Shown: piece after piece, positions 16,297-32,909 of the stretch
Layout of the letters: every line of letters begins with the position of its first letter
Position numbering within the stretch: the stretch's first letter is position 1
Source: Fidelibacterota bacterium
GTDB lineage: Bacteria; Fidelibacterota; UBA8477; JABMPR01
NCBI GenBank assembly: GCA_021734325.1
Contig: JAIPJF010000005.1
Coordinates: 4,028 to 68,027 of the forward strand
DNA: 64,000 bases
Direction of reading: 5' to 3'
Notes under the pieces: model-generated
What the model was told of the DNA's origin: nothing
Seen by the model: the letters and a program-made list of their open reading frames with translations, nothing else
Database searches by the model: none
Made by a program: the position numbers and the translations under genes

Positions 16297-16503
16297 TTCT
16301 TTTCTCCTTATCGGGAGAGAATGCCCAGGGTTAGATTGAAACCGATTCCAAAGTCAAGTAGCAGGATAACGTGAAAGTTTGTGAGTATTCTCAACCGTTG
16401 ATAAGTTAATAAATTGAAAATTATAAACCACTAGGCAAATGCAGGTAGTAAAACAGAAGGAGTCTTTTAAACAGGGAAGACTAAGGGATTAAAAAATCGC
16501 TGA

Positions 16504-17292: not shown

Positions 17293-17302
17293 TTAAAATT
17301 CC

Positions 17303-18203: not shown

Positions 18204-18872
18204 CTATTTGGTGATTTCAGCATCTTCAATGATGTTCGGATAAAAGTAGCCGGCTCCAAAATCCTTATCAAGGGTGAGCACTCCTTTTGCTGTCACACGC
18301 ATACCGACATCAACGGAATTATCACCTGTTGTGATGACGATTGTTGATGAATCAGATTCACCATCACTTAGATGGATCCATGTTTTTCCCATAATTCCGT
18401 GAAGAACCTTAATCGCTTCACCCTGGATCGAAATTGTGTGATTATTCAATACGTCCCTTGATCGCTTCACCTCAATGATCGGCTTGAATCCGGGTAGCGT
18501 CTTGTGAATTGTTTTGGGAGCGGTCATTGACATCATCTTATGGTCAGGTCTATTGAGCTGGGCATTTGCTGCAAATAATATTCGCGGGAAAGTTCTATTC
18601 ATTGTCTTGCTATGGAAGTCTACCATCCACATTTGACCTTCAAATTCAATTTTTGCACCTACAATTGCAGGCATCAGGCGAACTGCTATCCAGAATGTGC
18701 TGTCTGCCTCCTCAATTTGAAAATAGCTATAGCCACCAGACTCCAATATCTCCTTCACAATCCCGGAATGTTTTCCCTCCTGACCCATTAGAAATGAGCT
18801 AAGCCCTAGAAAAAGAATGAGTATAGTTAATACTCTTCGAGAACCGGGGTGCTTAATATCTTGATTGGCCAT
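18204..18872 (-). CDS. Secreted or anchored protein with two related small beta-rich repeats (OB-like); function unknown
   Basis: N-terminal anchor 'VLTILILFLGLSSFLMG'. Repeat 1 is 'GGYSYFQIEEADSTFWIAV', repeat 2 is 'GKTWIHLSDGESDSSTIVITT...DKDFGAGYFYPNIIEDAEI'. It starts 8 nt after the radical SAM gene ends. Confidence 0.55.
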   Translation of the reverse strand: MANQDIKHPGSRRVLTILILFLGLSSFLMGQEGKHSGIVKEILESGGYSYFQIEEADSTFWIAVRLMPAIVGAKIEFEGQMWMVDFHSKTMNRTFPRILFAANAQLNRPDHKMMSMTAPKTIHKTLPGFKPIIEVKRSRDVLNNHTISIQGEAIKVLHGIMGKTWIHLSDGESDSSTIVITTGDNSVDVGMRVTAKGVLTLDKDFGAGYFYPNIIEDAEITK

Positions 18873-18880
18873 ACTTAACC

Positions 18881-20407
18881 CTATTCAGATAGTATATTGA
18901 GTTGTGTCAGTGTATGGGGGTGTATGACCCCTGTTTTCGTCTTCGGGTGTTTGCCGGTCATGGCGTCGAACATGCGTGAAAATGCCGATTCCTGACCAGA
19001 GCTCCGAATAAGCTCCGTTAAGAATGAGTTTTTCATAATCAAACGCATGGAGGTCTTCAGGTACTCTTTCTTGAAAGCATCAGGTTCAGTAAAAAAGTCA
19101 TGAGCCTTATTCATGTAATATCTTCTGTAGCAATCCACAAGTTGACTGCGGACCTCCTTCAGGCTCATGGTTTCTGGCTTTATGATAGGTTCAACCAGAT
19201 TGTACCTACCATAATCATACACCTCGATGAACGGTTCCATTTCCCTATACATTTCAGCATAGGGCCAGGGAGTAATGGCCAGAAAATGGGCAAAATCCGG
19301 ACTGTACTCTTGCGCGAGACGGAGTGTTTCATCAATACTCTCTTTGGTTTCCCAGGGAAAGCCTATCACAAATGATGTTTCAGTTATCATGTGATGCGCA
19401 TGGATAAGTCTGATTGCTTTCCGAGACGCCTCGATGCTCAATTCTTTATTGATCAGATCCAGCGTTTCCTGGCTGGTGGCTTCAAGACCGATGTAAATAT
19501 GGATGACCCCGGCAGCCTTATATTTTTCTAGAATATCTTCATCCCTTACAATGTCCTCAGCCCTTGTTTCAAGCAAAATGTAGACATCTAATTCGCTGAC
19601 AATAATGAGATCAAGCAGCCGCTCCCACCGCTCTCTATCTTTTGTAGGATATTCGTCCACGAATAGAAAAATATTGACGCCGTATTCTGAATGCAAGTGC
19701 TGCATTTCTGCTAGAATATTTTGTGGATCGCGGCCTCTCCAGGTTTTCCCCCAAAATTTTTGCTGAGAACAAAAGGTGCAGCCATGGGTGCATCCTCGAG
19801 AGGTGCTAATGGCCGCTAACCTGGAATCAGGGATAACAAAATATCGGTAATCTTCCCAGTCGATGAGATCCCAGGCTGTGGGTAGACTATCCAAGTCCTG
19901 ACAGAAAGGTCGTACCGCTGTGTGCTTTACTTCACCCTCATCAACATAGGTGAGTCCTGCGACATCTTTGACATCGTTCCCTAGATCCAGGGCTTTAAGA
20001 AGCTCAGGAAGTGTCTCCTCGCCTTCACCGACGACGATATAATCAATGATATTTGAATGCTCTCCAAATAGGTCTTGATAACAAAACGTTGGATGTACGC
20101 CACCCATGATCGTTTTTACTCCCGGGTGAATCCGCTTCGCCAGAGCCAGGACATCGATGCTGGCGTTAATACTTGCAGTGATTGAGGTGATGGCAATATA
20201 GTCAAATGCTTCCCGCCTGAGTGTGGTTCCAATTTCTTCAAGACTGTGCTGCTTTGACATGGCATCATAAATTTTTGCTTCATATCCGGCTTTTCTGACC
20301 GCTCCAGCGAGATAAACGAATACGAGTGGCATCCAGGTTCCTGCCGATTCAACCACGCCAGCGTGATAGGGAGGGGTGATAAATAATATTTTTTTCTTAC
20401 TACTCAT
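18881..20407 (-). CDS. B12-binding-domain radical SAM enzyme
   Basis: N-terminal cobalamin-binding Rossmann-like domain ('KILFITPPYH...AITSITAS'). Radical SAM cluster motif 'SRGCTHGCTFCSQ' (CxxxCxxC). The long C-terminal helical tail is typical of class B radical SAM proteins. Confidence 0.9.
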   Translation of the reverse strand: MSSKKKILFITPPYHAGVVESAGTWMPLVFVYLAGAVRKAGYEAKIYDAMSKQHSLEEIGTTLRREAFDYIAITSITASINASIDVLALAKRIHPGVKTIMGGVHPTFCYQDLFGEHSNIIDYIVVGEGEETLPELLKALDLGNDVKDVAGLTYVDEGEVKHTAVRPFCQDLDSLPTAWDLIDWEDYRYFVIPDSRLAAISTSRGCTHGCTFCSQQKFWGKTWRGRDPQNILAEMQHLHSEYGVNIFLFVDEYPTKDRERWERLLDLIIVSELDVYILLETRAEDIVRDEDILEKYKAAGVIHIYIGLEATSQETLDLINKELSIEASRKAIRLIHAHHMITETSFVIGFPWETKESIDETLRLAQEYSPDFAHFLAITPWPYAEMYREMEPFIEVYDYGRYNLVEPIIKPETMSLKEVRSQLVDCYRRYYMNKAHDFFTEPDAFKKEYLKTSMRLIMKNSFLTELIRSSGQESAFSRMFDAMTGKHPKTKTGVIHPHTLTQLNILSE

Positions 20408-20777
20408 AGAGAGACATTGATCTTCTTAACCGTGTTTGGATGACTAACCCCCATATGACAAGACTGACAAGCAAAATATGTTTTACGATGAGTGCGACTA
20501 TTTGTCCCCGTCCAGCGGCCGGTAACCATTCATATTGTTCATAAGCCATTGTTCTGATCACACCACCGATGATAATCCATATCCAGGCTATCCAGATCGC
20601 TTTTCTGAAATAATTATAAATTCCGATGTATAGCGTCATCCCATCCCGGGAGAGATCCTTTTTACTGGATTTATAGAGATAGCTGAGACCAAACAGGCTC
20701 ACAAATAACAAGGCTACTGCAAAATCATGAAAAAAATTGTTCAGCATGATGAATATTGACATGAACACTCCCATCAT
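20400..20777 (-). CDS. Small integral membrane protein (3-4 TM helices, His residues in the helices)
   Basis: 125 aa and hydrophobic. 'FFHDFAVALLF' and 'IVKHILLVSLVIWG' place His residues within predicted helices. Its start overlaps the upstream stop (TGATG), and its stop overlaps the radical SAM start by 8 nt (ATGAGTAG). Confidence 0.7.
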   Translation of the reverse strand: MMGVFMSIFIMLNNFFHDFAVALLFVSLFGLSYLYKSSKKDLSRDGMTLYIGIYNYFRKAIWIAWIWIIIGGVIRTMAYEQYEWLPAAGRGQIVALIVKHILLVSLVIWGLVIQTRLRRSMSLYE

Positions 20778-21790
20778 CAGAATTTATAGAACTTTAGTTC
20801 GGTGCTGGCCATATCAGTAATCATAATTAAGCGCTTTTCATTGTCAATTGCGAGATTTATCGGGGATTCCAGTTCTTCACCGTAGGTTAATATCTGGGTC
20901 CCAGACGGGTCAAATACGTGGATCATGCCGGTTTCACTATCTGCGATATGCAGTCGGCCTTGCTGGTAAATTCCTGAGGGATCAAATACACTGTCTGCTC
21001 GCGCCAGGAATTTCGGTGATGGGATATTATCGAAAGCCATTCCCTGGGGCGATTGTAGCGCATTGCTTTCAGGTTTGACCAGCAGGCCCATGTCTCTGCC
21101 ATTACAGCTAAACACTCTTACATTCGCCGGGTGTAAAGTGCTAACGAGTAGCCTTCCATCAGGAGATATGATACAGTAGCCAGGGGCGAAGAAATCTAAA
21201 TCAGACCCGTTTAAATCCGGCGCGGAAAAAATGAGTTCTCCTGGTTCGCTGATTCCCGGTTTTTCCATGATATTTATGGCCATGACCTGCTGAAGTTTGC
21301 GGTCAGTGACATAGAGGACACCATCGTGCAGGGTAATGCCATATGGACGTAATCTGCTCACGTGGTCAGGCAGCCAGGCGATACGCTGAATCAAAGTTCC
21401 CAACAGGTCATAAATACGTAAATCACCTATCTGACTATCGGTCATATAAATATGATCATGATCCGCAGTGATTCCGGTAATGGAACCTTTCCCCTCATGG
21501 GATAGGTCCAGTCGCTTGATGAATTTGAATCGCGTATCAAAGATGTCAACGAGAGATTTATTGTGATAGGAAAGAAAACGATATTGATCTGTCGAACAAA
21601 ATGCGAAGGGGCGCAGGTTTTTATCATCAGATAATTTCAGGCTCCCAAGGTAAACAGGAGGCTCATCGAATTGCGTGATCACGTGAGTATTCTGTATCTT
21701 TCTTTCCAGTGTTAGCCAGTCATCGTGACTGAAAATAGATATACTGAAAGCCAGAATAGCCCCCACAAGAATGGGGGTGCAGATCTTCAT
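20777..21790 (-). CDS. NHL-repeat six-bladed beta-propeller protein (paralogue 3)
   Basis: Start chosen at 'MKICTPILVGAILAFSISIFS' (signal peptide). An alternative ATG at 21826 would overlap the ccsA stop by 8 nt. Repeated 'GITxD..hIYVTD....I.hasp' blades (e.g. 'PYGITLHDGVLYVTDRKLQQVMAI'). Confidence 0.8.
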   Translation of the reverse strand: MKICTPILVGAILAFSISIFSHDDWLTLERKIQNTHVITQFDEPPVYLGSLKLSDDKNLRPFAFCSTDQYRFLSYHNKSLVDIFDTRFKFIKRLDLSHEGKGSITGITADHDHIYMTDSQIGDLRIYDLLGTLIQRIAWLPDHVSRLRPYGITLHDGVLYVTDRKLQQVMAINIMEKPGISEPGELIFSAPDLNGSDLDFFAPGYCIISPDGRLLVSTLHPANVRVFSCNGRDMGLLVKPESNALQSPQGMAFDNIPSPKFLARADSVFDPSGIYQQGRLHIADSETGMIHVFDPSGTQILTYGEELESPINLAIDNEKRLIMITDMASTELKFYKF

Positions 21791-21818
21791 TACTTTGCTA
21801 TTGATCAGGGAGTTCAGA

Positions 21819-22637
21819 TTAACCATAACTGTGAATGGTCTGATAGACGTAACCAACACCCCACAGAGAGAAAGCAGCGATGAGTACGGCGATAATCGCA
21901 TACCAGGCAGTAAATTTACCCCGCAAGCGTTTAAAGGTGAAGTGTATATGGAGATACAGTGCATATACGATCCAGGTGATCAAGCTCCAGGTCTCAATGG
22001 GATCCCAGGCCCAGTAACGTCCCCAGGCATTATTGGCCCACACCGCCCCGGAAGCGAGCATAATAGTATGGAAAAGGAATCCCATCATGATATAGCGAAA
22101 GACCATTTCATCTAATAGTTCAGGCGTGCTTGGGTTTATTTTATCTCCGGCTGTTGATTGTCGATTCCTTTTTAACCACATGAAGCTTATACCTGCTGCG
22201 ACGAGAAACAGGGCCACACTCGCAGTAGCAAAACTTGCATGAATAAAGAGCCATACGCTATCCAATCCTGCACTCAAGGGTTCACCTGCATAGGAGGGGG
22301 TGCTGGCCCAGCCCATAAGCAAAAATGATCCACCACTTACCCCCAGTCCGGCCAAATCGAATCCCTTACCCTGTATTTGAAGTATGAGATAGAATAAAAT
22401 GGCGAACCATGCTGTAGCAGAAGCAGATTCAAACAGCGAAACAAAGGGAGGGTGCCCAGTGTAGATCCACCTGAGGATCTGGAAGAGAGTATGCATACTC
22501 AATCCAAAATAGACTGCAATGATGGCAAAGGATGAAAATTTGTCCTTTGCAAAAAAGAAGGCAATACAAAAGACTCCAAATGCCGTAGCATAACTTAACA
22601 CTGCCAACCAATACGAGATAATTTCAAATAATTGCAT
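21819..22637 (-). CDS. ccsA: Cytochrome c biogenesis System II haem-handling protein CcsA/ResC
   Basis: Polytopic membrane protein with the Trp-rich WWD motif 'WGRYWAWDPIETWSLITW' and flanking conserved His residues. Confidence 0.9.
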   Translation of the reverse strand: MQLFEIISYWLAVLSYATAFGVFCIAFFFAKDKFSSFAIIAVYFGLSMHTLFQILRWIYTGHPPFVSLFESASATAWFAILFYLILQIQGKGFDLAGLGVSGGSFLLMGWASTPSYAGEPLSAGLDSVWLFIHASFATASVALFLVAAGISFMWLKRNRQSTAGDKINPSTPELLDEMVFRYIMMGFLFHTIMLASGAVWANNAWGRYWAWDPIETWSLITWIVYALYLHIHFTFKRLRGKFTAWYAIIAVLIAAFSLWGVGYVYQTIHSYG

Positions 22638-23937
22638 GTTTTTGCTCTGATTCCTCTGTGTGAATTGGGTCCGTTTGAGGAGAAAGGGTAATTAATGGAT
22701 TGAGCAGTGGCTCCAATTCTGATAACAGGTCTTGGATTTCCTTATGCATGCTTGCCCTGTATTTTTCTGCTTTGCTTGAGATCTTGATGCTCGTGTAATG
22801 TTTCAATTCGTCAATGCTTATCATGATAGTGGTCCGACTGAACAAAGCTCGTAACAGAAGTCCGATAATCATAGATATTAAACCCATCTGGAGAGGAATT
22901 TGTCCAGGATTAGTCTGCAGTTCGAATTGATTCCAGGTTCGGATGTCGGAGTAAAATATTTGAAGACCCTGCAAAAATCCAGATGCACCAGGGAATAATG
23001 ATAGGGAGGCTGTCATGGTATTTGGACCTTTGGGCTCTTGGATCGAGATCTGGAGCTTGTTTTGATCTTCGATCTTCAGGTTTAAAACAACACCATTGGG
23101 CAGAGTAAAATGATCCGAATGGATACGCGTACCATTGGTCCAGCGGTTCGCAATTCTGATATATCCAGCAAGTTGTTGTCCTGTGTCATCAAGAATTCTG
23201 AGACCTGGTGAATACCCCCAGTTCATTAAAATGAACCCGTAGTCGTCTATATGTCCCCCTTCTCCATAAATGATTGTTTTTTCAGTATGGGTTTTAGGGG
23301 AAAATACAGTAGCACTACCGGGAGTGACCACTTGATCCTTGTACAATACGGGGGGGATGAAACTGCTCAGGGACACAGAGAATGACTCCCGAGTCCCTGG
23401 AGTGACAAACCAGCCTGGATCTGAATGCTGCCAGGATTGAGTTGGACTATCAAAAGTTTCACCCTCTGTCAAGGAGAAAACCATTTTATGACCCAAGGCC
23501 ATATTCATGAACAGAGCGATTAAAATTATTAATAAGGCGAAATGGAATATAAATGAGCCCCAAATACCAACATTCAGGTTTGAATAGGTCATGCCAGTAT
23601 GGAAGAGGTATCTGCGATTAAAGGATCTGACATTTGTCATATGCTCGGTTATGATCTCCTCGACCTGCTGACTTCGGAAGGGGGAATAGAGGGCAAATAT
23701 CTTGGGCGAATGCTTGAAGCCTGTCTTTGCAGCCTTCGATCGTTTCAACTCACTTCTTATACGACGGAAAAGAGAGAGCGAGAGCATGATGATGGTCAGG
23801 AGTCCTAATGTTACACCTATCTGTTCCAGTGAACCCACGTCTACGATTGATGGGAAAAGGGCAATATTCACAGACAAGATGAGCAAAGCGATTAGAAATA
23901 GAAATGCGAGTCTATTAATAGTCAAAAATCGAGACAT
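22624..23937 (-). CDS. ccsB: Cytochrome c biogenesis System II protein ResB/CcsB-like
   Basis: Start chosen at 'MSRFLTINRLAFLFLIALLIL'; the longer ORF would overlap the upstream cytochrome gene. The topology is ResB-like: N-terminal TMs including the His-bearing 'IFHFALLIILIAL', a large soluble domain and a C-terminal TM. It overlaps ccsA by 14 nt. Confidence 0.7.
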   Translation of the reverse strand: MSRFLTINRLAFLFLIALLILSVNIALFPSIVDVGSLEQIGVTLGLLTIIMLSLSLFRRIRSELKRSKAAKTGFKHSPKIFALYSPFRSQQVEEIITEHMTNVRSFNRRYLFHTGMTYSNLNVGIWGSFIFHFALLIILIALFMNMALGHKMVFSLTEGETFDSPTQSWQHSDPGWFVTPGTRESFSVSLSSFIPPVLYKDQVVTPGSATVFSPKTHTEKTIIYGEGGHIDDYGFILMNWGYSPGLRILDDTGQQLAGYIRIANRWTNGTRIHSDHFTLPNGVVLNLKIEDQNKLQISIQEPKGPNTMTASLSLFPGASGFLQGLQIFYSDIRTWNQFELQTNPGQIPLQMGLISMIIGLLLRALFSRTTIMISIDELKHYTSIKISSKAEKYRASMHKEIQDLLSELEPLLNPLITLSPQTDPIHTEESEQKHAII

Positions 23938-23957
23938 TTTTGCTAAAGTTTCATCTC

Positions 23958-25841
23958 TTAGTAATTTGTACCTTTGTGGGTCTTGGCACAATTTGCCGCA
24001 CCTGATTCTGACCAGCATTTGGGCACAGTGAAATCAATGTCTGCAATATAGCCGTTTACGAAGGCTCTCAGAGGTTGGGCAGTACCGGCACTGGATAATT
24101 GCTCATTTGTCACATATGCTTTATTCTGTCCATGGACATAGATCACCTTACTGTTTCCCCCTGACGTTGCCCCTATTTCAGAGCTTTCATACATATGGCA
24201 TGAGAAACATCCCATTGTCAATCGATGGGCACTTTTTACCGAGGGATGTTGACCAAATTGAGAGGACACCAAGCCACCATTCCAATAATTTGCATAGGAG
24301 TGGCACACATTGCAGAGGGGCGTGCCATTGGTTGCATCGCTGGCGATTGTCGCCACCAACATGGCAGATTGATTGGATGCGGGATCTGGGCTGTCCACGA
24401 TAACCGAAGAACCATGTGGTCCGGTGGCGTCAGTTCGATCAGGTATTCCTGTACCTGTGGACGTCCATCCTAAATCACTTCCATGACAATCTGAACATAG
24501 CACCAGACGGGTTGCGGAATCAAATGGGGGATTGGCATTGCTGGAATTCACCCACACGGTTTCATTTCTCTGTACAATTCCATGTGTGGAAGCATGGTTA
24601 GGATTGATCTCAAGGGCGATATTTCTTTTGCCTGCACCCTGCGTCGTATAATCAGAATGACATTTCAGACAGATCTGCCATTCAGCTGTCACCGGGTCCA
24701 CCACTGTATAGGTGATTGTAGGGCTGCCAAAATCGTTTGAGTTATCGGAAAAACTAGTTGGAGGCGTCCACCAGGTTGGCTGAACTCCCCATGTTCCTTT
24801 TAGAGCCGTTGCTAACGATGAGCCTGTCGTACCACCTGCAAGATGTGGCTCATGACAATCAAAACACTCTGCGTGTCGCTTGTCTGGATCTCTGAAAAAT
24901 GTATCTGCAGGAGCGGTCATAAATGTTTCACCACTAACATGAATTCCGGAAATTGTATTTGTTGGATGAGCATTGAGACTATTTAGTGGAGTCTCTATAT
25001 CCAAACTTCTGCCGCTGCTGGTCCCTGTTGCTGCTGTTGGTGCGTGACACCCCGAGACAGAGCAGGTAGCTTCTTCAACACCGGATAAAAGTGAGTTCCC
25101 ACCTCCATGGGGTTTATGACAGCCGGCACAACCTGTGGTATAATGAGCGACATCCACATCCCAGCCTGATTTAGCGTGACAGGTATTACATAGGTCTGCA
25201 CTGGGTTGGTGCAGGAAAGGTGCATATGTGGTATTGTGAGGATCATGGCAGGTATGACATTCAACGGTACCAGAAATATCATTGGGGTCAAGAAGGACAC
25301 CGCCAGTCAATGATGGATCCCAAGGGAAAGTCCTTGCGACAAGGTCTGGATCCTGACCCGGTCCACTTCCCTGATCATAAGTGAATCCGATTGGATGATC
25401 ATCTGTGAGATCGGTGCCTATGTATCCTGCGGCAACAAGTGGCATGGTTGTGACGCCGCCGGCCATGGTAATGGCGGATCCCGTGCCACTCCCCGGTGCA
25501 TTGTATACAGAACCGATAGCCACGGTTCCATCGTGACAGCTCATACAGAGTTTGGATTTGTCATTCGGTTGTGATGGTGTTGCATAACCTGAGAGCCTGG
25601 TGCTTGAGTATAAAGTATAGTCTGTTACAGAGCTCATCTGTTGGTTCCAGAGCTGATCAATGGTCTGGGTACTATGAGCAGTATGACAGAAAATGCAAAC
25701 CCCTTGTTCTGTGTCGGCCTGGTATGTGGCTCCCGTTGAAGAAGCTGAGAGGTCGTGCTTTGAATTTATAATTGATTGACCGGAGAGGACTGCATTCATT
25801 ACAAGGGCAGAAATAAACAAATAAAGAAGCTGTCTAATCAT
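23958..25841 (-). CDS. Multiheme cytochrome c, 11 haem-binding motifs (10 CxxCH + 1 CxxxxCH)
   Basis: Signal peptide 'MIRQLLYLFISALVMNAVLSGQ' (ATG 25841 overlaps the upstream stop by 8 nt, ATGATTAG). Motifs: CIFCH, CMSCH, CHTCH, CNTCH, CAGCH, CSVSGCH, CFDCH, CLKCH, CSDCH, CNVCH, CFSCH. The N-terminal 'SKHDLS...CIFCHTAH' resembles the doubled-CXXCH family. Confidence 0.95.
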   Translation of the reverse strand: MIRQLLYLFISALVMNAVLSGQSIINSKHDLSASSTGATYQADTEQGVCIFCHTAHSTQTIDQLWNQQMSSVTDYTLYSSTRLSGYATPSQPNDKSKLCMSCHDGTVAIGSVYNAPGSGTGSAITMAGGVTTMPLVAAGYIGTDLTDDHPIGFTYDQGSGPGQDPDLVARTFPWDPSLTGGVLLDPNDISGTVECHTCHDPHNTTYAPFLHQPSADLCNTCHAKSGWDVDVAHYTTGCAGCHKPHGGGNSLLSGVEEATCSVSGCHAPTAATGTSSGRSLDIETPLNSLNAHPTNTISGIHVSGETFMTAPADTFFRDPDKRHAECFDCHEPHLAGGTTGSSLATALKGTWGVQPTWWTPPTSFSDNSNDFGSPTITYTVVDPVTAEWQICLKCHSDYTTQGAGKRNIALEINPNHASTHGIVQRNETVWVNSSNANPPFDSATRLVLCSDCHGSDLGWTSTGTGIPDRTDATGPHGSSVIVDSPDPASNQSAMLVATIASDATNGTPLCNVCHSYANYWNGGLVSSQFGQHPSVKSAHRLTMGCFSCHMYESSEIGATSGGNSKVIYVHGQNKAYVTNEQLSSAGTAQPLRAFVNGYIADIDFTVPKCWSESGAANCAKTHKGTNY

Positions 25842-26844
25842 TGCTGCTGCTCCTGAGATATTGAAAAATCTGGATGCGCCCATTCATGGTATCAGCAATG
25901 TAAATCTTATCGTTATTATCGATCCATATTCCAGAGGGCATATTGAATTGTCCATGCCCATTTCCTGGGCTTCCGACAACCAGAAGTAATTGGCCCTCGG
26001 CATTGAAAATCTGGAATACATTAAACAGGTTGTCCACGACATAAATGTGATCCTGACTGTCACTGGCAATTCCTTTTGAACGCATAAACGTTCCCTGCAC
26101 ATCTCCCTGTTCTCCAAATATGTTTGTGATTTTATGGCTCTCATTCACTGCTTGTACCCGGAAGTTCATGGAATCGTTTATATACAGGTGTTTCCCTGTT
26201 CCCATAAATACAGGAAAATTGAATTCACCTGGACCAATGCCCTGCTGACCAAACTCAAACAAATATGTACCATCAAGGTTAAAGATGAAGATCTTGTGAT
26301 AACCCGTGTCTGCGACATATAATCGATTTTGATAGATGCAAAGTCCAGTCGGTCGAGAAAAATATCCCTCTATAGCATATTCCAATCGTCCTTTTTCATT
26401 GAGGATAAAAACAGACCCTATCTCCGAATCACTTATAAATATTTTTCTGCTCTGGGAAACCACAACATCTACAGGACTGATAAAAGGAGTTGAGCCGGCG
26501 TGATCAATGCGCTGGTAGCTTTTATCCTTTTGGTCGAACACATGCAGTGTCCTTAGTCCCTGATCTGTTACATACAGCCTGCCCATTCCATCGACGCACA
26601 AGCTTAGGGGTTTGACCAGTGACTCACTTCGGGAATCTCTTCCTAAAACGAAATCGACCACCTTGCTCCAGAATTTTTTTTCAATTCCCAAATCCTGACT
26701 GGAATAAATACTCGAGACGTAGCGTATGCGTGCCATTTCAGGTGGTTCGGGCCAGACGGGTTTCTCCTCTGCCCAGGCGAAGTCCAATGCTCCCAGTAGG
26801 AGAATAGTAATGCAGAGGCCCTTTATTGGCAGAAAAACTTTCAT
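25834..26844 (-). CDS. NHL-repeat six-bladed beta-propeller protein (paralogue 2), secreted
   Basis: Signal peptide 'MKVFLPIKGLCITILLLGALDFAWA'. NHL blades include 'GEFNFPVFMGTGKHLYINDSMNFRVQAV' and 'GQFNMPSGIWIDNNDKIYIADTMNGRIQIF'. Confidence 0.85.
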   Translation of the reverse strand: MKVFLPIKGLCITILLLGALDFAWAEEKPVWPEPPEMARIRYVSSIYSSQDLGIEKKFWSKVVDFVLGRDSRSESLVKPLSLCVDGMGRLYVTDQGLRTLHVFDQKDKSYQRIDHAGSTPFISPVDVVVSQSRKIFISDSEIGSVFILNEKGRLEYAIEGYFSRPTGLCIYQNRLYVADTGYHKIFIFNLDGTYLFEFGQQGIGPGEFNFPVFMGTGKHLYINDSMNFRVQAVNESHKITNIFGEQGDVQGTFMRSKGIASDSQDHIYVVDNLFNVFQIFNAEGQLLLVVGSPGNGHGQFNMPSGIWIDNNDKIYIADTMNGRIQIFQYLRSSSND

Positions 26845-26923
26845 ATACCTAGGTAGTCCATCTAATTATGTGCCAACGTAACCTGGGATAGCTTGAGAAT
26901 GATGATAAAATTCACTTTCTATG

Positions 26924-28597
26924 CTATAACGTTATCGTTATTGGACGGCTTATCGTAATAAAATATCGATTCCCGGAATTGAATTTACTTTCTCGATATT
27001 CATATCGAAAGCTGATTCGATATGCGTATACACGTGCGTTTAAATTTGCATTCAGGGTCGTTGAAATGAAATGCACCAAATTACTTGTATCAGTTGGGTC
27101 CGATCCAATGGTTATTGTTTGATGACTGTATAATCCTGAGATCTGAGTGGAAAAATTTCGAAAAAGACCTGAATTGGCAAAGCTGATTCTGGCTGATCTC
27201 GCTTTATCAAGTGGCTTATCAAGGTTTGTCCACGAGAGGTTTGCCTCCAAGCTTCCGGTTGTGGCTCGACCCAGTTTTATATTTGATCGGCCTTTTAATA
27301 TTCTTGAATGGACAATGTCGGAGCTACTGACCAGGCCAGTGCGTGCCTGCCCTTGAATGACACTCAAATCCAGAAATATATTTGAGCTGACATTGCTTTG
27401 AAATCCAAAGTGAACGCTATTTCTAAATGCTGAGTTAGACAAATAGCTCAACAGATGTGTGAAGCTTTCTTCTCCATTCAGCTCAATTTTTTGGTTTAGC
27501 TTCCATCTCATTCTACCACTGATGCTCAAGGTGTTTGCATAGTGATATTTCTCCTGGTGTCTTAATCTCTGTACGCCAGTCTTATCGCTGATGGTCAAAG
27601 AAGTTCGTGCGCTCCTGATCCGCTTGTTGTATAGAAAATTGGCTCTGACCCAGTAGGCATTTTCGGACATGCGTTCAACAGGTGATATGGAATTGGTCTC
27701 AGAAAGATCTGCTCCCAGGGATAGACGTTTACCATTTGGAAGTGTAAACGAACTTGAATGAATTGCGCTGATCGATTGAGTGCTGAATAGGGCAGTACTC
27801 TGCTTTTGCATACCAAGCACTGTTGTATGACGCGTACCTGGAGGAGTATCAGGGATAATATTTATTTTTCCGTTCGAAGATTGGGCCTGATTAAGTTTGT
27901 TCAGATTTGCCTGTGTCGTTATCCTGATTTTGTCAATCAATCTGGTGAAGGAATTAAAAGAAACAGTTTCGTAGGTATTATCAAGATTCACCAGGTAATT
28001 ATGATCCCTTGCCTTGGAATAATACATCGAATAGCCAGCTGTTACATCACGACTCTGATTATTGATGGCAATTGAAAATTGATTCCCACTTTGAAGCAGC
28101 GCGTTTTGATTTGCAATTTGTGAAAGACTAGTACTATAAACGATCTTTGGCAAAAGTTTGGTCCCGGGTATACTTCCCTGAAGTCTCAGAAAATCATTGT
28201 TCTCAAATATTTTCCCCAATAATTGGGATGATCCATTGCTCTCTTCTCTTCTATTCCTTATAAGGCTCAGGCTGATCGGAAAGCGCGATTTTTTTAGCAG
28301 GTTGCTTCTTAAGTTATAATTCCATTGTCTTGGTATAAAAGTCGTGCTCCCAGCGGCTTCACGTATCAGGGTCCGTTGGTCATTATAAGCTGTGGTTAGA
28401 ACATAATCACCGATGCGCTCATGGAGAAGTCTGCCCATGATCCTTAGCTGATAGTTTTGGCGATAATTTGAAATTTGATTGGCATCTTTATCAAACGAAT
28501 TTGTCATATTGAGCGTTATCGTCGATATCTGAGCAATGCCGCTTGACAGCAGGATCAAAATAAAAAAACAGACTTTATAACTGCTCTTGAGAGTCAT
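26924..28597 (-). CDS. Predicted outer-membrane beta-barrel protein (candidate porin of the cytochrome cluster)
   Basis: Signal peptide 'VCFFILILLSSGIAQ'. 557 aa, Ser/Thr/Asn/Arg-rich with many short alternating hydrophobic/polar stretches, no Cys-haem motifs and no TM helices. I recognised no family by eye. Confidence 0.55.
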   Translation of the reverse strand: MTLKSSYKVCFFILILLSSGIAQISTITLNMTNSFDKDANQISNYRQNYQLRIMGRLLHERIGDYVLTTAYNDQRTLIREAAGSTTFIPRQWNYNLRSNLLKKSRFPISLSLIRNRREESNGSSQLLGKIFENNDFLRLQGSIPGTKLLPKIVYSTSLSQIANQNALLQSGNQFSIAINNQSRDVTAGYSMYYSKARDHNYLVNLDNTYETVSFNSFTRLIDKIRITTQANLNKLNQAQSSNGKINIIPDTPPGTRHTTVLGMQKQSTALFSTQSISAIHSSSFTLPNGKRLSLGADLSETNSISPVERMSENAYWVRANFLYNKRIRSARTSLTISDKTGVQRLRHQEKYHYANTLSISGRMRWKLNQKIELNGEESFTHLLSYLSNSAFRNSVHFGFQSNVSSNIFLDLSVIQGQARTGLVSSSDIVHSRILKGRSNIKLGRATTGSLEANLSWTNLDKPLDKARSARISFANSGLFRNFSTQISGLYSHQTITIGSDPTDTSNLVHFISTTLNANLNARVYAYRISFRYEYRESKFNSGNRYFITISRPITITL

Positions 28598-28664
28598 AAA
28601 CGACGCTTATAAAGAATTGAGATTATTCCCATTTCACAATACCCCACTTGCCCTGGAAATAGAA

Positions 28665-28701
28665 AAAGGACCAAAAAAGTTTTGAGCTCCCTTGGTCCTT
28701 T
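28665..28701 (-). terminator. Rho-independent terminator directly after the tetrahaem cytochrome gene
   Basis: On the minus strand: aaaggaccaa-(17-nt loop)-ttggtccttt followed by ttctattt. It lies 40 nt after the stop at 28741. Confidence 0.8.
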
Positions 28702-28740
28702 TACCCGGTTTAAACGATGATTAAGCCGTGGGAGAAATCC

Positions 28741-29388
28741 TTATTTCGAATGACAGGTGATACATAGTGCGCTGGAAGCATTGCTCTTCCGTAAAAATGT
28801 ACCGTTCGTGTTGTCATGCGGATCATGACAGCTATTACACTCAACCTTGCCATTTGTCAGCTTCAAACCGCCTGTGCTTGTGACCGTAGCTGCTGCGACG
28901 AATCCAGAAGCATCTGCAGCAATACTTTCAGAGTATAATATCCCAACTGGATGATCACCACTTAAATCCCTTGTCATGTCTGGCATACCGGCAGCAATGA
29001 TTCCACTAGTCACATTTCCACCATCAGTTATAGCAATGGTTGCACCACTGGCACCAGATCCCGATTCATTCAGTATGACGCCGATAGCTGTGGCACCATC
29101 ATGGCAGCTCATGCAGGCAGTAGATCCTTCGCCAGAGGAACCGGCTGTGCTAGCCAGGGCCACAGTGTTGTAAGTGGCTATGGTTCCTGATCCCTTGTTC
29201 CAGAGCAGGTCAGCGCCATTGGTTGTGTGTGGCGTATGGCAAAAGATACAGGTACCCGTCTCAGTTGTAGCGACAGCACCACCGCTGGTCGAACTGGTGG
29301 ACAGGTCATGCTTTGTGTTCGCGATTTGAGCATTTGTCACGCCGATAGCGATCAACAGCACTAAGCTTGAAAGTAACAGTTTTTTCAT
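28741..29388 (-). CDS. Small secreted tetrahaem cytochrome c (215 aa), Ser/Thr/Gly/Ala-rich
   Basis: Signal peptide 'MKKLLLSSLVLLIAIGVTNAQ'. Motifs: CIFCH, CMSCH, CNSCH, CITCH. It is collinear with the first four haem motifs of the 11-haem protein (KHDLS, CIFCHT.H, LWN, CMSCHDG..AIG, DHP.G, VEC..CHDPH, LC.TCH.K). Confidence 0.95.
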   Translation of the reverse strand: MKKLLLSSLVLLIAIGVTNAQIANTKHDLSTSSTSGGAVATTETGTCIFCHTPHTTNGADLLWNKGSGTIATYNTVALASTAGSSGEGSTACMSCHDGATAIGVILNESGSGASGATIAITDGGNVTSGIIAAGMPDMTRDLSGDHPVGILYSESIAADASGFVAAATVTSTGGLKLTNGKVECNSCHDPHDNTNGTFLRKSNASSALCITCHSK

Positions 29389-29506
29389 TTTTTCCCCTCT
29401 TCGTTTATAAGCCGGATAGAAATCTAATTCTACCTTTTACAATACCTCCAATTTCAAACATCTGTATTTGTCGATACTATTGTTTGTCACAGGTGAGATA
29501 ACTTGC

Positions 29507-29522
29507 GGCAATATCCGTGCCA
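29507..29522 (-). promoter_or_regulatory. Near-consensus sigma-54 (-24/-12) promoter for the tetrahaem cytochrome gene
   Basis: The minus strand reads TGGCACGGATATTGCC against the consensus TGGCACG-N4-TTGCW, with exact GG-N10-GC spacing. The -12 GC lies about 120 nt upstream of the ATG at 29388, inside a 230-nt intergenic region. Confidence 0.75.
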
Positions 29523-29619
29523 TTAGGAAATAATGACAATAGCACAAATAAAAGATTAGAGCAATTGTTGTTAAAAGTAAAATAATGTGATATGAGAGTA
29601 TTGGCTAGCTGATAGGCGT

Positions 29620-30633
29620 CTATCCCGCTCCAAGAAAGCGGAATACCTGGACACGTGAATTGTGCTGATCAACCACATAAATCAAATTATTTTCGTCAAT
29701 ATGTATCCCCATGGGAGTATGAAATTCACCCGCAGCAGTTCCGGGAATACCGACAAATAAATAGACATTGCCAGCTTCATCAAATATTTGGAAATTGTGG
29801 TACATCCCGTCTGTCACAAAGATATACTCATCATTTGTGACTGCCAAGCCCTTGGGTCTGTAGAGATCACCAGGGGCATCACCTGCCTGCCCGAACTTGG
29901 AAATGAAATTTCCGTCGAGATCAAAAATCTGAACTCGGAAATTCATGGCATCCACGACATAAATTTTATCATTCTTGATGGACATATAGGAAGGAAAATT
30001 AAACTCACCCTCTCCACTTCCTCTTGCGCCAATGGTAAACAACTGATCTCCGCTGTGAGCATTAAAAACAATGATTTGATGTGAATTGCTATCGGTAACG
30101 TAGAGTCTGTCTGTCCCGGCATGATAGGCTAAGCCTCCGGGTCGGTTCAATTCGCCCTTTTTGCCTATCAGTTTTATAAATTTGCCGTTTGTGGTCATAC
30201 AGACAATTTTTTGCAAATAGCTGTCGGCTACCCAGATAAGACTATCATGGATGGCCAGACCTACAGGCCATAATAATTTAGTCTTTCCCTGCTGACCAAT
30301 TTTTCGAATTTTGCCTTGCTCTCTGTCGAACACTTTTATTGAGCGATCGGCACTATCGCTGACATAGACATTTCCCCTGGCATCTGTCGCGACATCAAAG
30401 GCTTGAATGAGCTTTTGACCGGCTTCCGCACCAAATACAATGGTGCTAAGTTTGTCTTGATAGCTTTGTCCCTGGAAATATTGATCCTGTAAAATTTCAA
30501 CAAATTCAATTCGTGCCTGATCTGGAGGATCCGGCCAGACGAGCTCTGGCCACACTGAAACTGTTGGTGTACACCCAGTGAGGGAAAAGAGCGTTGAAAT
30601 AAAAGACACATATAATTTGATTATTTTTTTCAC
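29620..30633 (-). CDS. NHL-repeat six-bladed beta-propeller lipoprotein (paralogue 1)
   Basis: Lipobox 'LFSLTGC'. NHL blades include 'GEFNFPSYMSIKNDKIYVVDAMNFRVQIF' and 'GEFHTPMGIHIDENNLIYVVDQHNSRVQVF'. It is clearly paralogous to 25834-26844. Confidence 0.85.
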   Translation of the reverse strand: MKKIIKLYVSFISTLFSLTGCTPTVSVWPELVWPDPPDQARIEFVEILQDQYFQGQSYQDKLSTIVFGAEAGQKLIQAFDVATDARGNVYVSDSADRSIKVFDREQGKIRKIGQQGKTKLLWPVGLAIHDSLIWVADSYLQKIVCMTTNGKFIKLIGKKGELNRPGGLAYHAGTDRLYVTDSNSHQIIVFNAHSGDQLFTIGARGSGEGEFNFPSYMSIKNDKIYVVDAMNFRVQIFDLDGNFISKFGQAGDAPGDLYRPKGLAVTNDEYIFVTDGMYHNFQIFDEAGNVYLFVGIPGTAAGEFHTPMGIHIDENNLIYVVDQHNSRVQVFRFLGAG

Positions 30634-30649
30634 TGGAAGCGTCCTTTAT

Positions 30650-31699
30650 TCAATTATTGGGATCCTGCTTAAGCACCTCAAGGGAGGGGGGAACAGGGAG
30701 TTTCAATCTTTCTGGAATGATAAATTCAGGCTGCTCAATATCGGTTGTTTTCCCATTCTCATTCGCTTTGAGTGCACTTAGCGATGGAGCCAGCGGTAGA
30801 TCGTAATCTTTGGGACCTACATAGAATTCAGGTCTACTGATTGAACTATCATAAGGGGGACTGAACAGACCAAACCCACTGAATAAATCTTTCAGATCCT
30901 GCCACAAGTTTGTGTGCTTGGCAAGCGGAAAACCAATCAGGGGTCTCGTCGAAAAACCTGCCATAGCCTGTATGACCGGTTGTGATTGATCACCAGACAT
31001 GCAAAAGCCGTATGCCATGCCCACCTGTAAATGACTGAAAACGAAGGTCTTGATCCCGGCATTGATAAATGATTCATATCCTTCAGGTGCAGACCCATCC
31101 AGAAAATACTCCCCGCTGACCTGAAGATTCTTGAACAGGGGTCGACTTCCAGCCAATCCGAAATACAGCCCTCTTTTTACTCTCCTCTCCTCAAAGGTCC
31201 TTTCCTGCAAACCGACTTGTAATATTGCATTCACATTACCCAGAGTATACTCTGAGATCAAGGTAGCCTGGTAAAAACGATAATTCGAGACGGATGAAGG
31301 GAGAGGATTGGAAATATATTCCACCTGTGAGGACTTTGCTGAGAGGGCGAGATTAGCGTCATGCCAGGTAAGCAGGTTGATCTTTGTGCCAATTTGTGAA
31401 TCACCAAGTAAAGCATTATTAAAGGTACTTTGCTGATTATGGGAAAGGAAAATCTCAATTTTGGGAGAAATCCCCAGGGCAAAATTAAAGGGAATAAACT
31501 GACTTGAATGAGCAGGCAGCAGTCCGATGCGGATATGGCCAACATCCAGGGTCTGGGCACTCGGGATATAAAACAATCCCGTTGAACCATTCAAGCTTAT
31601 CCCGAGATCTGGTATATATGGTGATTGATCTGCAGCATGGAGGCCGCAGACAACTTGTAGAAACAGGGCGAACAGGACAAGTTTGGGTGTATGTTTCAT
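30650..31699 (-). CDS. Secreted, outer-membrane-like protein with a Pro-rich C-terminal tail
   Basis: Start chosen at 'MKHTPKLVLFALFLQVVCGLHA' (signal peptide, 4 nt after the upstream stop). 'STGLFYIPSAQTL' resembles the N-terminal motif of YjbH-like beta-barrel proteins. The C-terminal roughly 80 aa are Pro-rich. Confidence 0.5.
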   Translation of the reverse strand: MKHTPKLVLFALFLQVVCGLHAADQSPYIPDLGISLNGSTGLFYIPSAQTLDVGHIRIGLLPAHSSQFIPFNFALGISPKIEIFLSHNQQSTFNNALLGDSQIGTKINLLTWHDANLALSAKSSQVEYISNPLPSSVSNYRFYQATLISEYTLGNVNAILQVGLQERTFEERRVKRGLYFGLAGSRPLFKNLQVSGEYFLDGSAPEGYESFINAGIKTFVFSHLQVGMAYGFCMSGDQSQPVIQAMAGFSTRPLIGFPLAKHTNLWQDLKDLFSGFGLFSPPYDSSISRPEFYVGPKDYDLPLAPSLSALKANENGKTTDIEQPEFIIPERLKLPVPPSLEVLKQDPNN

Positions 31700-31703
31700 A
31701 GGC

Positions 31704-32909
31704 CTAATTTTTAAAATGACATTGTTGACAAAGCTCACTCCAATTCCCCCTCAGCAGAAATTCCTCATCTGAAGCGTGGGGGTGGTGACAGGAGGCACAG
31801 CTCAATTCGTGATCAGGATCCAGGGGATTTGGGTACCCTGAATGAGGATGTTTTTTGACCGGGTGGAATCCAGCTTTGATATGATCATGGCAGCTTAGGC
31901 ATAATTCATTTGTCTTTTTAACAAGGAGGGCGTCAGCCGATGTTCCGTGGGGGTCATGACAAATGAGACAGCTTTCCTCCATGGGCGGATGGATATTTTC
32001 CATATTGTTAACTTCGTCTTCCTGATCGCTATGACACATCATGCAAGTACTCGGGTCTCCGCGGAAATCTTCTAGAAGTTGATGTTTGGGATCGGATCCA
32101 TCATCATGACAGGAATTGCATTCCATTTCTTCAGTGGGAGAATGCATCATTGCTTTGTCCAGGATTGATGAGTGGCAGAACGAGCAGTCGTCTTCCTCCA
32201 TCTCCGTATGACAATAGGAGCACTTTTCCTCATTTTCGCCATGGAACTCACTACGGACGGCATTCTCAGGGACATCTTCAGCCAGAGAGGAAATGAAATA
32301 ATAGAAATTCAGGGTGTCGGCATATTGCAATTCATATTCTTCGTTCAGGAAATGCAGATAGAATGAATTAGAACCAGGTTTAAACGCAAGTTGTGAGGCG
32401 ATGAGGTCTGGATGATTGGGGCGACTTAATGGATTCAGTATCCTTTTCTCAACATTCCAGCCAATTAAAGTGATTTTCAGATTAAGAGCGTTAATTTCGG
32501 TGACTTTTTGAAGGGCCCGTCGGAAATCGGTCGTTCGCCAGAAATCTTCCAGATCGAGGGGGCGACTGGTTGAAAAATTGTATTCATAGGTCGAGGTGTC
32601 ATTATTTATATGAATAAAATTCAGGATCATGATATTGACATTGAACCGAGGGGTGAACATGTTCATCATGGTTTTGGGAAAGGCATCTTTTTCCTCGGGA
32701 CTGAGGATGCCCATTGATGTACTGATAGTTGTATCCTGGAGGAGTTGGTATTCGGTGCGGGTAGAGGAAGTGTAGAGTGCTTTTAAAAACCCTCCCTGTG
32801 CATAACTGATTTTTTCGTGGGTTAGCGGAAAGAGTAATTGGAGATCATCACCGTAATTAGGGCTGGATATTAGAACCAAAAACAGCAGAAAAAGGACATG
32901 TATTTTCAT
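31704..32909 (-). CDS. Octahaem cytochrome c with a roughly 220-aa N-terminal non-haem domain
   Basis: Signal peptide 'MKIHVLFLLFLVLISS'. Motifs: CSYCH, CSFCH, CNSCH, CMMCH, CLICH, CLSCH, CASCH, CQQCH, all in the C-terminal 180 aa. 'CHDPHGT...LL....LCLSCH' is a doubled-CXXCH-like spacing. Confidence 0.95.
   Translation of the reverse strand: MKIHVLFLLFLVLISSPNYGDDLQLLFPLTHEKISYAQGGFLKALYTSSTRTEYQLLQDTTISTSMGILSPEEKDAFPKTMMNMFTPRFNVNIMILNFIHINNDTSTYEYNFSTSRPLDLEDFWRTTDFRRALQKVTEINALNLKITLIGWNVEKRILNPLSRPNHPDLIASQLAFKPGSNSFYLHFLNEEYELQYADTLNFYYFISSLAEDVPENAVRSEFHGENEEKCSYCHTEMEEDDCSFCHSSILDKAMMHSPTEEMECNSCHDDGSDPKHQLLEDFRGDPSTCMMCHSDQEDEVNNMENIHPPMEESCLICHDPHGTSADALLVKKTNELCLSCHDHIKAGFHPVKKHPHSGYPNPLDPDHELSCASCHHPHASDEEFLLRGNWSELCQQCHFKN

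Follow-up and report, generated by a model that had tools for sequence, protein, structure and literature searches.

Systems I, II and III are regarded as a complete inventory of cytochrome c maturation, and haem c as chemically uniform, barring a few autocatalytic crosslinks. What, then, would a cobalamin-dependent radical SAM enzyme contribute to an operon of multihaem cytochromes? The question is raised by a 64,000-nt stretch of contig JAIPJF010000005.1 from a Fidelibacterota bacterium (the window), in which all cluster genes, from the radical SAM gene to an octahaem cytochrome, lie on the minus strand (ORF coordinates):

18204..18872, minus strand: secreted protein of 222 aa with no cysteines (ORF list).
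18881..20407, minus strand: cobalamin (class B) radical SAM enzyme, sister to BchE, 508 aa, predicted to be cytoplasmic (Pfam, TIGR02026, tree, motif).
20400..20777, minus strand: mini membrane protein, three predicted helices, ORF of 125 aa (ORFs, homologues, AlphaFold2 model).
20777..21826, minus strand: NHL3, the third NHL/beta-propeller-like protein, predicted periplasmic; its longest ORF extends to 21964 (ORFs, homologues).
21819..22637, minus strand: CcsA (ResC), the subunit that handles haem in a dedicated system II cytochrome c synthase (PF01578, TIGR03144, tree).
22624..24018, minus strand: ResB/CcsB-like partner of CcsA; probable start Met28 at 23937 (PF05140).
23958..25883, minus strand: secreted multihaem cytochrome, 641 aa (Paired_CXXCH_1 match, motif count).
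25834..32909, minus strand: upstream part of the cluster, with NHL2, a 557-aa barrel-like protein, a terminator-like hairpin (28664-28702), a tetrahaem cytochrome (28741-29388), NHL1, a 362-aa outer-membrane-like protein and the octahaem cytochrome (ORFs, CXXCH counts, terminator scan).

The genes are tightly packed. The 8-nt overlap between mini and the radical SAM gene, described in the initial annotation, is seen in the sequence at 20400-20407: the mini stop TAG occupies 20400-20402 and the radical SAM start ATG 20405-20407, with the minus-strand letters ...TAT GAG TAG read over ATG AGT AG. Upstream of mini lie NHL3, CcsA and ResB, every junction being an overlap or a gap of at most 20 nt. 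The CcsA and ResB ORFs share 14 nt, and NHL3 most likely starts at Met47 (21826), giving an 8-nt overlap with the CcsA stop, as in the related locus L021, where a 348-aa NHL3 homologue overlaps the ccsA stop by the same 8 nt; further NHL3 homologues occur in L025 and L052. The overlap of the mini start with the NHL3 stop, also claimed earlier, stands for the first ATG of the longest ORF, which shares one base with that stop (TGATG at 20775-20779). The more likely start is Met6 (ATG 20760-20762), giving 120 aa and a 14-nt spacer after the NHL3 stop with no overlap; it has GGGAG five bases 5′, is the gene-caller start in P0121 (120 aa) and aligns with the methionine of homologues.

On its other side, the radical SAM gene is 8 nt from the next gene downstream. 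This gene, encoding the 222-aa protein, is probably part of the same transcript; a homologue lies downstream of the radical SAM gene in L021 and a paralogue on contig C8, and the protein has no Pfam or NCBIfam match. The terminator scan gave a single strong minus-strand terminator-like site in the cluster (28702-28664) and none on that strand between 28597 and 18204.

Both Pfam domains expected of the class B radical SAM enzyme named in the initial annotation match the 508-aa protein: the B12-binding domain PF02310 covers residues 15-137 (E = 1.8e-25) and Radical_SAM, PF04055, residues 200-365 (E = 2e-25). The CX3CX2C motif sits in RGCTHGCTFCSQ (about residues 204-215), and the cluster motif CTHGCTFC shows no variation across 53 family members. 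Judged from its sequence, the protein is a class B enzyme that looks cytoplasmic and appears catalytically competent. Its nearest characterised family, by a wide margin, is BchE, the anaerobic Mg-protoporphyrin monomethyl ester cyclase of bacteriochlorophyll synthesis, which targets the C13 propionate of a metalloporphyrin. The score on TIGR02026 (BchE) is 421 bits, under the equivalog cut-off of 481.35, while true BchE representatives (P0185 and P0186) reach 761 and 770 bits; the second-best family is HpnR at 141 bits (NCBIfam scan). In our tree, the family forms a separate clade (SH-aLRT 96), sister to BchE together with P0201/P0202, and a sequence search of solved structures returned distant class B enzymes only (best E = 1.7e-12). 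Score and tree together identify the enzyme as a member of an uncharacterised sister clade, not as BchE.

Both families place a B12-binding domain at the N terminus, ahead of a radical SAM core, and they share the cluster motif RGCxxxCxFCSQxxFW, with 38-39% identity over about 455 residues. In contrast, 11 residues invariant in the new family differ in BchE, and the C-terminal 40-50 residues of the enzyme have no match there. The carriers are non-phototrophs without Mg-branch genes, here even without ALAD, and the enzyme's neighbours are ResB/CcsA and multihaem cytochromes rather than bch genes. Some relatives bring additional domains. An SRPBCC ligand-binding domain is fused to the enzyme in Nitrospirota members, and P0181 carries a fused LuxE-type adenylating domain, which L047, L050 and L051 encode as a separate gene; such partners would fit a hydrophobic, carboxylate-bearing small molecule. 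Long radical SAM ORFs at L049 and L051, considered as SRPBCC fusions in a CcsA context, proved to be merely N-terminal ORF extensions, and P0177, a supposed 1075-aa fusion, ends in a barrel-like tail and probably reflects artefactual read-through.

Placement of the enzyme as sister of a tetrapyrrole enzyme favours haem among the candidate substrates that had been listed for it; a quinone, a lipid and a protein residue are less favoured.

We examined the neighbourhood in 37 loci that hold a member of the family, many of them from related genomes and not independent. CcsA is the commonest neighbour, present in the fetched flank at 27 of the 37 loci (28 counting Geotalea, where it is about 11 kb away). 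ResB follows, beside CcsA in about 23 loci, then mini in 15; mini is absent from more than half of the loci, and hidden mini fusions at these were rejected, since the NNFxHD motif of mini is found in small ORFs only. Genomes hold 1-6 CcsA-family genes, so a chance radical SAM-CcsA adjacency within 9 kb either side is expected in a few per cent of cases at most. Among the phyla of the 37 loci are Marinisomatota, Desulfobacterota, Actinomycetota and Spirochaetota. CcsA-linked loci are present in every subclade of the radical SAM tree, and in Geotalea daltonii the radical SAM enzyme, ResB, CcsA, mini and a giant cytochrome form one co-directional array. For the SRPBCC-fused Nitrospirota members (L034), no CcsA lies within 9 kb. 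Because the linkage is conserved in other genomes, the arrangement is more than chance, and the earlier view that the radical SAM enzyme and mini belong functionally to the cytochrome/CcsA operon is borne out. The orthologues neither sit among unrelated neighbours nor fall inside a family of known function. The suggested association with NHL and cytochrome genes holds for the cytochromes, since most of the 37 loci encode ones with 7-26 CXXCH motifs; NHL propellers occur in only about nine, and ResB/CcsA is the conserved partner. The enzyme is not needed for cytochrome c maturation in general, as only 15 of 351 sampled Desulfobacterota genomes carry it.

The cytochrome at 23958..25883 has 10 CXXCH motifs and one CX4CH motif, and its orthologues occupy the same position in L021, L025 and L052; it is a likely client of the ResB/CcsA-mini-radical SAM module. 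Counts of CXXCH, CX3CH, CX4CH, CXXCK and long-spacer motifs revealed no unusual haem-binding motif common to the neighbouring cytochromes, and a special motif was therefore rejected as the cause of a dedicated synthase. The same comparison bears on the idea that the enzyme modifies the apocytochrome polypeptide itself, methylating or crosslinking a residue in the cytoplasm before Sec export, much as in RiPP maturation. Many class B enzymes are peptide C-methyltransferases, weaker matches to ApyD (133 bits) and rSAM_ocin_1 (114 bits) are present, and cytochrome genes are nearly always close by. We nevertheless regard this as improbable: the neighbouring cytochromes belong to different families with no motif in common, and the constant partner is the haem handler CcsA rather than any single apoprotein. 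In addition, the Pfam search found no peptide-recognition domain in the enzyme, and its BchE score is threefold that of the peptide enzymes.

The synthase itself has the hallmarks of system II, with a WWD-bearing CcsA that retains its ligand histidines and an adjoining ResB/CcsB partner. CcsA matches PF01578 (E = 3.8e-36, 125 bits) and TIGR03144 (171 bits, slightly under the cut-off of 187.6); ResB scores 39.1 bits on PF05140, against a cut-off of 24.6. CcsA carries the WWD motif WGRYWAWDPIETW with His61, His133, His230 and His269, of which WGRYWAWDPIETW, H133, H230 and H269 are conserved. CcsAs linked to the enzyme represent at least four phyla; they split with SH-aLRT 100 from 12 housekeeping CcsAs encoded in the same Desulfobacterota genomes, and the protein at 21819..22637 falls within the linked clade. 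These linked proteins score 94-136 bits on PF01578 versus 180-200 for the housekeeping ones, and they retain the WWD motif and histidine ligands.

This divergent lineage also weighs on the proposal that the substrate is a membrane lipid, hopanoid or quinone needed by the electron conduit, with the enzyme's linkage to CcsA reflecting co-regulation only. The next-best matches of the enzyme are indeed HpnR, HpnJ and the ladderane-lipid families (109-141 bits), and an SRPBCC fusion would suit a lipid or quinone ligand. Those scores, however, are far under the BchE score, and co-regulation leaves unexplained both why a divergent CcsA/ResB lineage travels with the enzyme and why CcsA, rather than barrels or cytochromes, is its commonest neighbour. 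We consider a lipid or quinone substrate unlikely.

The host carries the module as an accessory: none of 22 congeners was found to have it, and within the phylum 2 of 401 genomes carry it. To the left of the island lies an isocitrate dehydrogenase gene (13334-15562) present in 12 of the 15 congeners searched, at 74-80% identity; the gene to the right (33188-34660) is also rare in congeners and so marks no right-hand border. Base composition gives no sign of recent transfer, as the GC content of the cluster (42-46%) matches that of its flanks. Both the host and its congeners possess Ccm system I (CcmF/CcmC), yet the island supplies a ResB/CcsA of its own.

In the host genome, which is 84% complete, we did not find ALAD, HemC, ferrochelatase, a true UroD or CobN/BchH (Mg-chelatase H), and only 2 of the 22 congeners have ALAD. 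Tetrapyrrole auxotrophy of the host is probable, though not proven, because of this level of completeness. Without detected tetrapyrrole genes the host must salvage its haem, and biosynthetic intermediates are therefore unlikely substrates of the radical SAM enzyme here. A role as a filler of gaps in haem biosynthesis, the enzyme replacing HemN or AhbD and mini acting as a HemJ-like oxidase, was rejected for three reasons: no ALAD could be detected in the host or in 20 of the 22 congeners, nor HemC or ferrochelatase in the host; Ccm is present even in congeners that have no such enzyme; and an actinobacterial carrier owns an AhbD-like gene and a ferrochelatase. The HemJ idea for mini was dropped because the host has no detected tetrapyrrole synthesis, and Pfam and NCBIfam scans gave no HemJ match at E ≤ 0.01. 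It is likewise scarcely credible that the enzyme is a true BchE (ring E cyclase), or that its adjacency to the cytochrome genes is chance or an annotation artefact. It scores under the equivalog cut-off and lies outside the BchE clade, Mg-chelatase/CobN, ALAD and HemC were not found in the genome, and the linkage in 27 of 37 loci spans phyla.

The mini membrane protein offers clues of its own. The histidines noted initially are H17 and H100 (125-aa numbering), the first invariant and the second nearly so among 36 homologues. Further conserved residues are N13, N14 and D18 in the first transmembrane helix (NNFxHD, together with H17), G72 and R75 in the second, E83 and W84 in the loop, and K99 beside H100 in the third. 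An AlphaFold2 model predicts three helices (pLDDT 83.7), and a fold search of this model against solved structures returned nothing below E = 1. CopD (PF05425) gives a weak profile match over helices 2-3 in 24 of the 36 family members (best E = 9.4e-7), with scores of 20.5-21.2 bits, all under the Pfam gathering cut-off of 32.1. Like CopD, mini is a small helical membrane protein that has conserved histidines; it differs in having only three helices, and the NNFxHD motif of helix 1 is specific to its family. These matches suggest remote kinship only.

By the positive-inside rule, the outer leaflet would contain the conserved histidine pair and one arginine of mini, so that the protein may hold haem or a metal. 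The two histidines at similar membrane depth would also suit a scheme in which the radical SAM enzyme leaves haem unaltered, acting as a haem chaperone for CcsBA or as an electron or redox supplier, with mini as a haem-b redox subunit that would keep haem or cysteines reduced. HemW, a haem chaperone of the radical SAM family, is a precedent, and we know of no haem reductant of system II. Such a scheme is nonetheless unlikely in our estimation, since the CX3CX2C motif and B12 domain are strictly kept over a deep family, which argues for catalysis, and the adenylating-domain fusions point to substrate chemistry.

On balance, we think it more likely than not that the radical SAM enzyme and mini are accessory parts of a dedicated system II module, in which the enzyme tailors haem for the adjoining cytochromes. 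Homology and context suggest the following scheme. ResB-CcsA-[NHL]-mini-radical SAM would be a self-contained cytochrome c maturation module serving the adjacent multihaem cytochromes. As the host seems unable to make tetrapyrroles and has system I, the most likely substrate is finished haem obtained by salvage; the radical chemistry of the enzyme would most likely be directed at a propionate side chain. This reaction would precede haem export and ligation to CXXCH sites by the divergent CcsA/ResB, with mini as a putative membrane adaptor next to that pair. The best reading is thus that salvaged haem is tailored or handed over in the cytoplasm, as one step of a dedicated system II.

More tentatively, and with decidedly less confidence, the enzyme might turn haem b into a chemically new haem that only the divergent ResB/CcsA attach, in some multihaem cytochromes. 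Oxidation or cyclisation of a propionate, of the BchE type, would be one possibility, and in some lineages activation of the carboxylate may come first, through a LuxE-like adenylating partner. To our knowledge, no naturally modified haem c of this kind is known. If the idea is right, a subset of extracellular or periplasmic electron-transfer cytochromes would carry a new covalent cofactor, with altered redox properties or packing.

The initial annotation had held that no such enzyme is a known component of cytochrome maturation, and the literature searched agrees, showing no haem or cytochrome role for B12 radical SAM enzymes. Full-text searches found no publication describing the enzyme or mini as a system II component, and neither haem nor cytochrome is mentioned anywhere in a 2026 review of this enzyme class. 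That the two recur as a pair beside multihaem cytochromes in several phyla suggests that cytochrome production includes a step not yet described. A radical SAM enzyme accompanied by a ResB/CcsA pair of its own, next to giant multihaem cytochromes, implies that an unrecognised step exists, be it cofactor tailoring, a special hand-over or redox support. The cytochromes concerned matter for extracellular electron transfer, metal cycling and bioelectronics. The linkage is also a first functional lead for a large group of 'BchE-like' genes of non-phototrophs, which public databases mis-annotate as chlorophyll cyclases.

Dedicated system II haem lyases have a parallel in Wolinella succinogenes, where NrfI reportedly serves CXXCK and CcsA1 the CX15CH site of MccA. 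As in the present cluster, an extra CcsA/ResB-type synthase there reportedly stands beside particular multihaem cytochromes, in addition to a housekeeping system. The Wolinella systems are reportedly explained by their unusual haem-binding motifs and have neither a radical SAM partner nor mini, whereas here no consistent unusual motif was found and the housekeeping system is Ccm (system I). The module also resembles canonical system II (CcsB/ResB and CcsA/ResC, with CcdA and ResA) in its WWD-bearing CcsA with ResB directly upstream. Its linked CcsAs, however, branch separately from the housekeeping CcsAs encoded in the same genomes, and it supplements the canonical machinery with a B12 radical SAM enzyme, predicted to be cytoplasmic, and, often, with a three-helix protein bearing two histidines.

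We located the window's BchE-like class B (cobalamin) radical SAM enzyme and its two-histidine membrane-protein neighbour in the ORF listing and raw sequence:

18881-20407, minus strand: radical SAM gene, 508 aa
20400-20777, minus strand: small membrane protein ORF, 125 aa

The enzyme, the sole one of its kind in the host genome, combines a B12-binding domain with a radical SAM core (Pfam). Against the BchE model of NCBIfam, TIGR02026, it scores 421 bits over positions 1-459 of 497, threefold higher than against the next family, HpnR (141 bits), and under the equivalog cut-off of 481 bits. When 1.8 billion representatives were searched exhaustively, a compact family emerged down to ~44% identity, followed by true BchE at 38-39% (database proteins P0185 and P0186, which reach 761 and 770 bits on TIGR02026). 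The enzyme's family forms a separate clade sister to BchE in a maximum-likelihood tree (quick search, with SH-aLRT the sole support measure; SH-aLRT 96). The RGCxxxCxFCSQ cluster motif is invariant across this family, as are eleven positions unlike those of BchE, and a search of solved structures gave no close match. While similar to BchE in sequence, the enzyme fell outside that family in three membership tests; that it is a true BchE, or lacks a functional link to the module described below, is very improbable.

We then compared 37 distinct loci carrying a family member, drawn from a pattern scan of species genomes, look-ups of database hits and Desulfobacterota carriers (15 of 351 genomes, taken with up to 9 kb of sequence to each side). 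The same neighbours emerged whether we searched with proteins of the window or clustered all ORFs without bias. CcsA is the commonest (27 of the 37 loci), followed by its system II partner ResB (~23), the small membrane protein (15) and cytochromes resembling the secreted, multihaem 641-aa protein encoded upstream of ResB in the window (23958-25883, minus strand). Of the cytochrome and NHL genes whose co-occurrence the initial annotation proposed to test, the former are well represented, cytochromes with 7 to 26 CXXCH motifs being present in most loci, and the latter less so, NHL proteins being present in ~9 loci, well behind CcsA. The 641-aa cytochrome itself has 10 CXXCH motifs and one CX4CH (CSVSGCH), and its C-terminal CWSESGAANCAKTH stretch includes two further cysteines; in Actinomycetota and part of the Desulfobacterota, the giant cytochromes adjacent to the enzyme often have CX4CH sites (up to 8 per protein).

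A genome has 1-6 CcsA-family genes, so adjacency by chance within 9 kb on each side would amount to a few per cent at most. Although related genomes among the loci are not independent, linkage to CcsA extends to all subclades of the enzyme tree and to Marinisomatota, Desulfobacterota, Actinomycetota and Spirochaetota. Among the flanks without CcsA, L003, L004 and L036 are contigs shorter than 9 kb (L004 nonetheless has the membrane protein gene), L006 is a contig slightly below that length, and in four further loci a multihaem cytochrome adjoins the enzyme. An extended flank in Geotalea daltonii places the BchE-like enzyme and CcsA in one co-directional array (giant cytochrome, ResB-like, CcsA, ResB, second B12 radical SAM, spermine-synthase-like membrane protein, small membrane protein, MacB-type transporter, FtrD-like, BchE-like enzyme). 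The clear exception is L034, in which a Nitrospirota form of the enzyme bears an SRPBCC domain at its C-terminus. That the constant partner is a haem handler, and not one particular cytochrome family, points to haem as the substrate; modification of a peptide, even beside such frequent cytochromes, is unlikely. A LuxE-type adenylating enzyme also recurs, fused in the database protein P0181 and as a separate gene in L047, L050 and L051. Fusion partners would suit a hydrophobic carboxylate, again in line with haem. We regard a lipid or quinone target as distinctly unlikely.

Some lineages have two class B enzymes beside ResB/CcsA, as a further B12-binding radical SAM enzyme (~420-460 aa), more distantly related, recurs in these modules:

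L018, 6177-7538
L036, 69-1325
L041, 6671-8047
L050, 14378-15715
L070, 8574-9917

Likewise recurrent beside the enzyme in Spirochaetota and Desulfobacterota, and absent from the host genome, is a membrane protein whose N-terminal part is MFS-like and which also has a spermine/spermidine-synthase-like domain:

L014, 4740-7733
L036, 1603-4008
L070, 10001-11620

The linked CcsA retains the WWD motif and histidines. In carriers with several paralogues, it scores 94-136 bits on PF01578, versus 180-200 for the other copies. A branch with SH-aLRT 100 (again a quick tree with this measure alone) separates all 28 of the linked copies, which represent at least four phyla, from 12 housekeeping copies taken from the same Desulfobacterota genomes. 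On this narrow sample of housekeeping CcsAs, the linked CcsA is a separate lineage within those Desulfobacterota genomes, and not yet a universal subfamily. At residue 214, the WWD motif of the window CcsA (21819-22637) reads WDPIE, where housekeeping CcsAs have WDPKE; in linked CcsAs this Lys is mostly replaced by Ile or a different residue.

Within the window, the 8-nt overlap of the membrane protein stop with the radical SAM start (ATGAGTAG) is exactly as first described. The coupling claimed at the other end stands only for the longest reading, in which the first ATG and the third NHL gene's stop have one base in common (TGATG); the better start, Met6 (ATG 20760-20762), leaves a 14-nt spacer. 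Met6 has GGGAG five bases upstream, is the start in the database copy P0121 (120 aa) and lines up with the first Met of homologues. The longest ORF of this third NHL gene (20777-21964) extends 146 nt into its upstream gene and probably starts at Met47 (21826), 8 nt within the ccsA end; that of ResB (22624-24018) extends 61 nt and likely starts at Met28 (23937). Both starts agree with gene lengths and the 8-nt overlap in the related locus L021. The ccsA/resB overlap is 14 nt. No terminator-like hairpin was found on the minus strand from 28597 to 18204, the single strong one being at 28702-28664. A near-consensus sigma-70-like site (TTGACA, 16 nt, TATGAT; 20847-20820, minus strand) lies within the end of the third NHL gene, ~45-60 nt upstream of the membrane protein start, and could act as an internal promoter giving the membrane protein and the enzyme a separate transcript; promoter-like sites in the cluster region are not enriched over shuffled sequence. 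Downstream of the enzyme follow:

18204-18872, minus strand: secreted, cysteine-free 222-aa protein without family match, beginning 8 nt after the radical SAM gene
15598-18154, minus strand: 283-aa protein without family, sulfotransferase and cytidylate-kinase-like protein

The 222-aa protein has a homologue downstream of the enzyme in L021; a paralogue with 32% identity is encoded on host contig C8. The three remaining genes are not conserved beside the L021 module and so are probably unrelated to it.

The cluster is not set apart by GC content; to its left, the isocitrate dehydrogenase gene has counterparts in 12 of the 15 congeners examined. Searches of 40 relatives, 22 of them species of the same genus, did not turn up the enzyme; across the phylum, 2 of 401 genomes carry it. 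The host belongs to the same phylum as G354, for whose identical proteins NCBI gives the label Candidatus Neomarinimicrobiota. Since the host, like all congeners, has CcmF and CcmC, the window ResB/CcsA is an extra, cluster-dedicated system. Searches of the host genome (2.93 Mb, 84% complete) did not find ALAD, HemC, ferrochelatase, true UroD or CobN/BchH. HemC and ferrochelatase were also not found in most congeners, and only 2 of 22 have ALAD: G002, with HemC and UroD, and G016, where a third CcsA/HemX-like gene lies ~8 kb away from it. Tetrapyrrole synthesis thus has a patchy distribution in the genus, and the host is probably a haem and corrinoid auxotroph.

The small membrane protein matches no family above threshold in profile scans, although 24 of 36 members show weak similarity to CopD. 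Its model comprises three long helices (pLDDT 84), with no match in a fold search. Invariant or nearly invariant residues lie in helix 1 (N13, N14, H17, D18), helix 2 (G72, R75), the loop (E83, W84) and helix 3 (K99, H100). With positive loops inside, both histidines and R75 are predicted to fall in the outer leaflet, a placement compatible with a bis-His haem or metal site. For the enzyme, a chaperone or redox role that leaves haem unmodified is unlikely.

Requiring SAM, an iron-sulfur cluster and cobalamin, the radical SAM enzyme must act in the cytoplasm. It is from this side that haem enters CcsBA, whereas apocytochromes are exported unfolded. We favour, with moderate confidence, a reading in which it carries out radical chemistry on finished haem, or its controlled hand-over, from where the haem would pass to the dedicated ResB/CcsA, with the small protein as membrane adaptor. 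Haem is supported by the chemistry of BchE, the nearest relative, whose substrate group is the propionate of a metalloporphyrin, and finished haem is indicated because a probable auxotroph would have no supply of biosynthetic intermediates.

The initial annotation knew of no class B enzyme in cytochrome maturation; a full-text search agreed, although it covered few subscription journals and absence there is not proof. Neither haem nor cytochromes come up in a review of B12 radical SAM enzymes from 2026. The window contributes a host background of system I and probable tetrapyrrole auxotrophy, the rarity of the module in genus and phylum, a residue map and predicted topology for the membrane protein, and corrected gene starts. 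By analogy, the module may work as a dedicated synthase, as do the dedicated system II lyases of Wolinella; unlike these, it has no diagnostic motif and is accompanied by a radical SAM partner.
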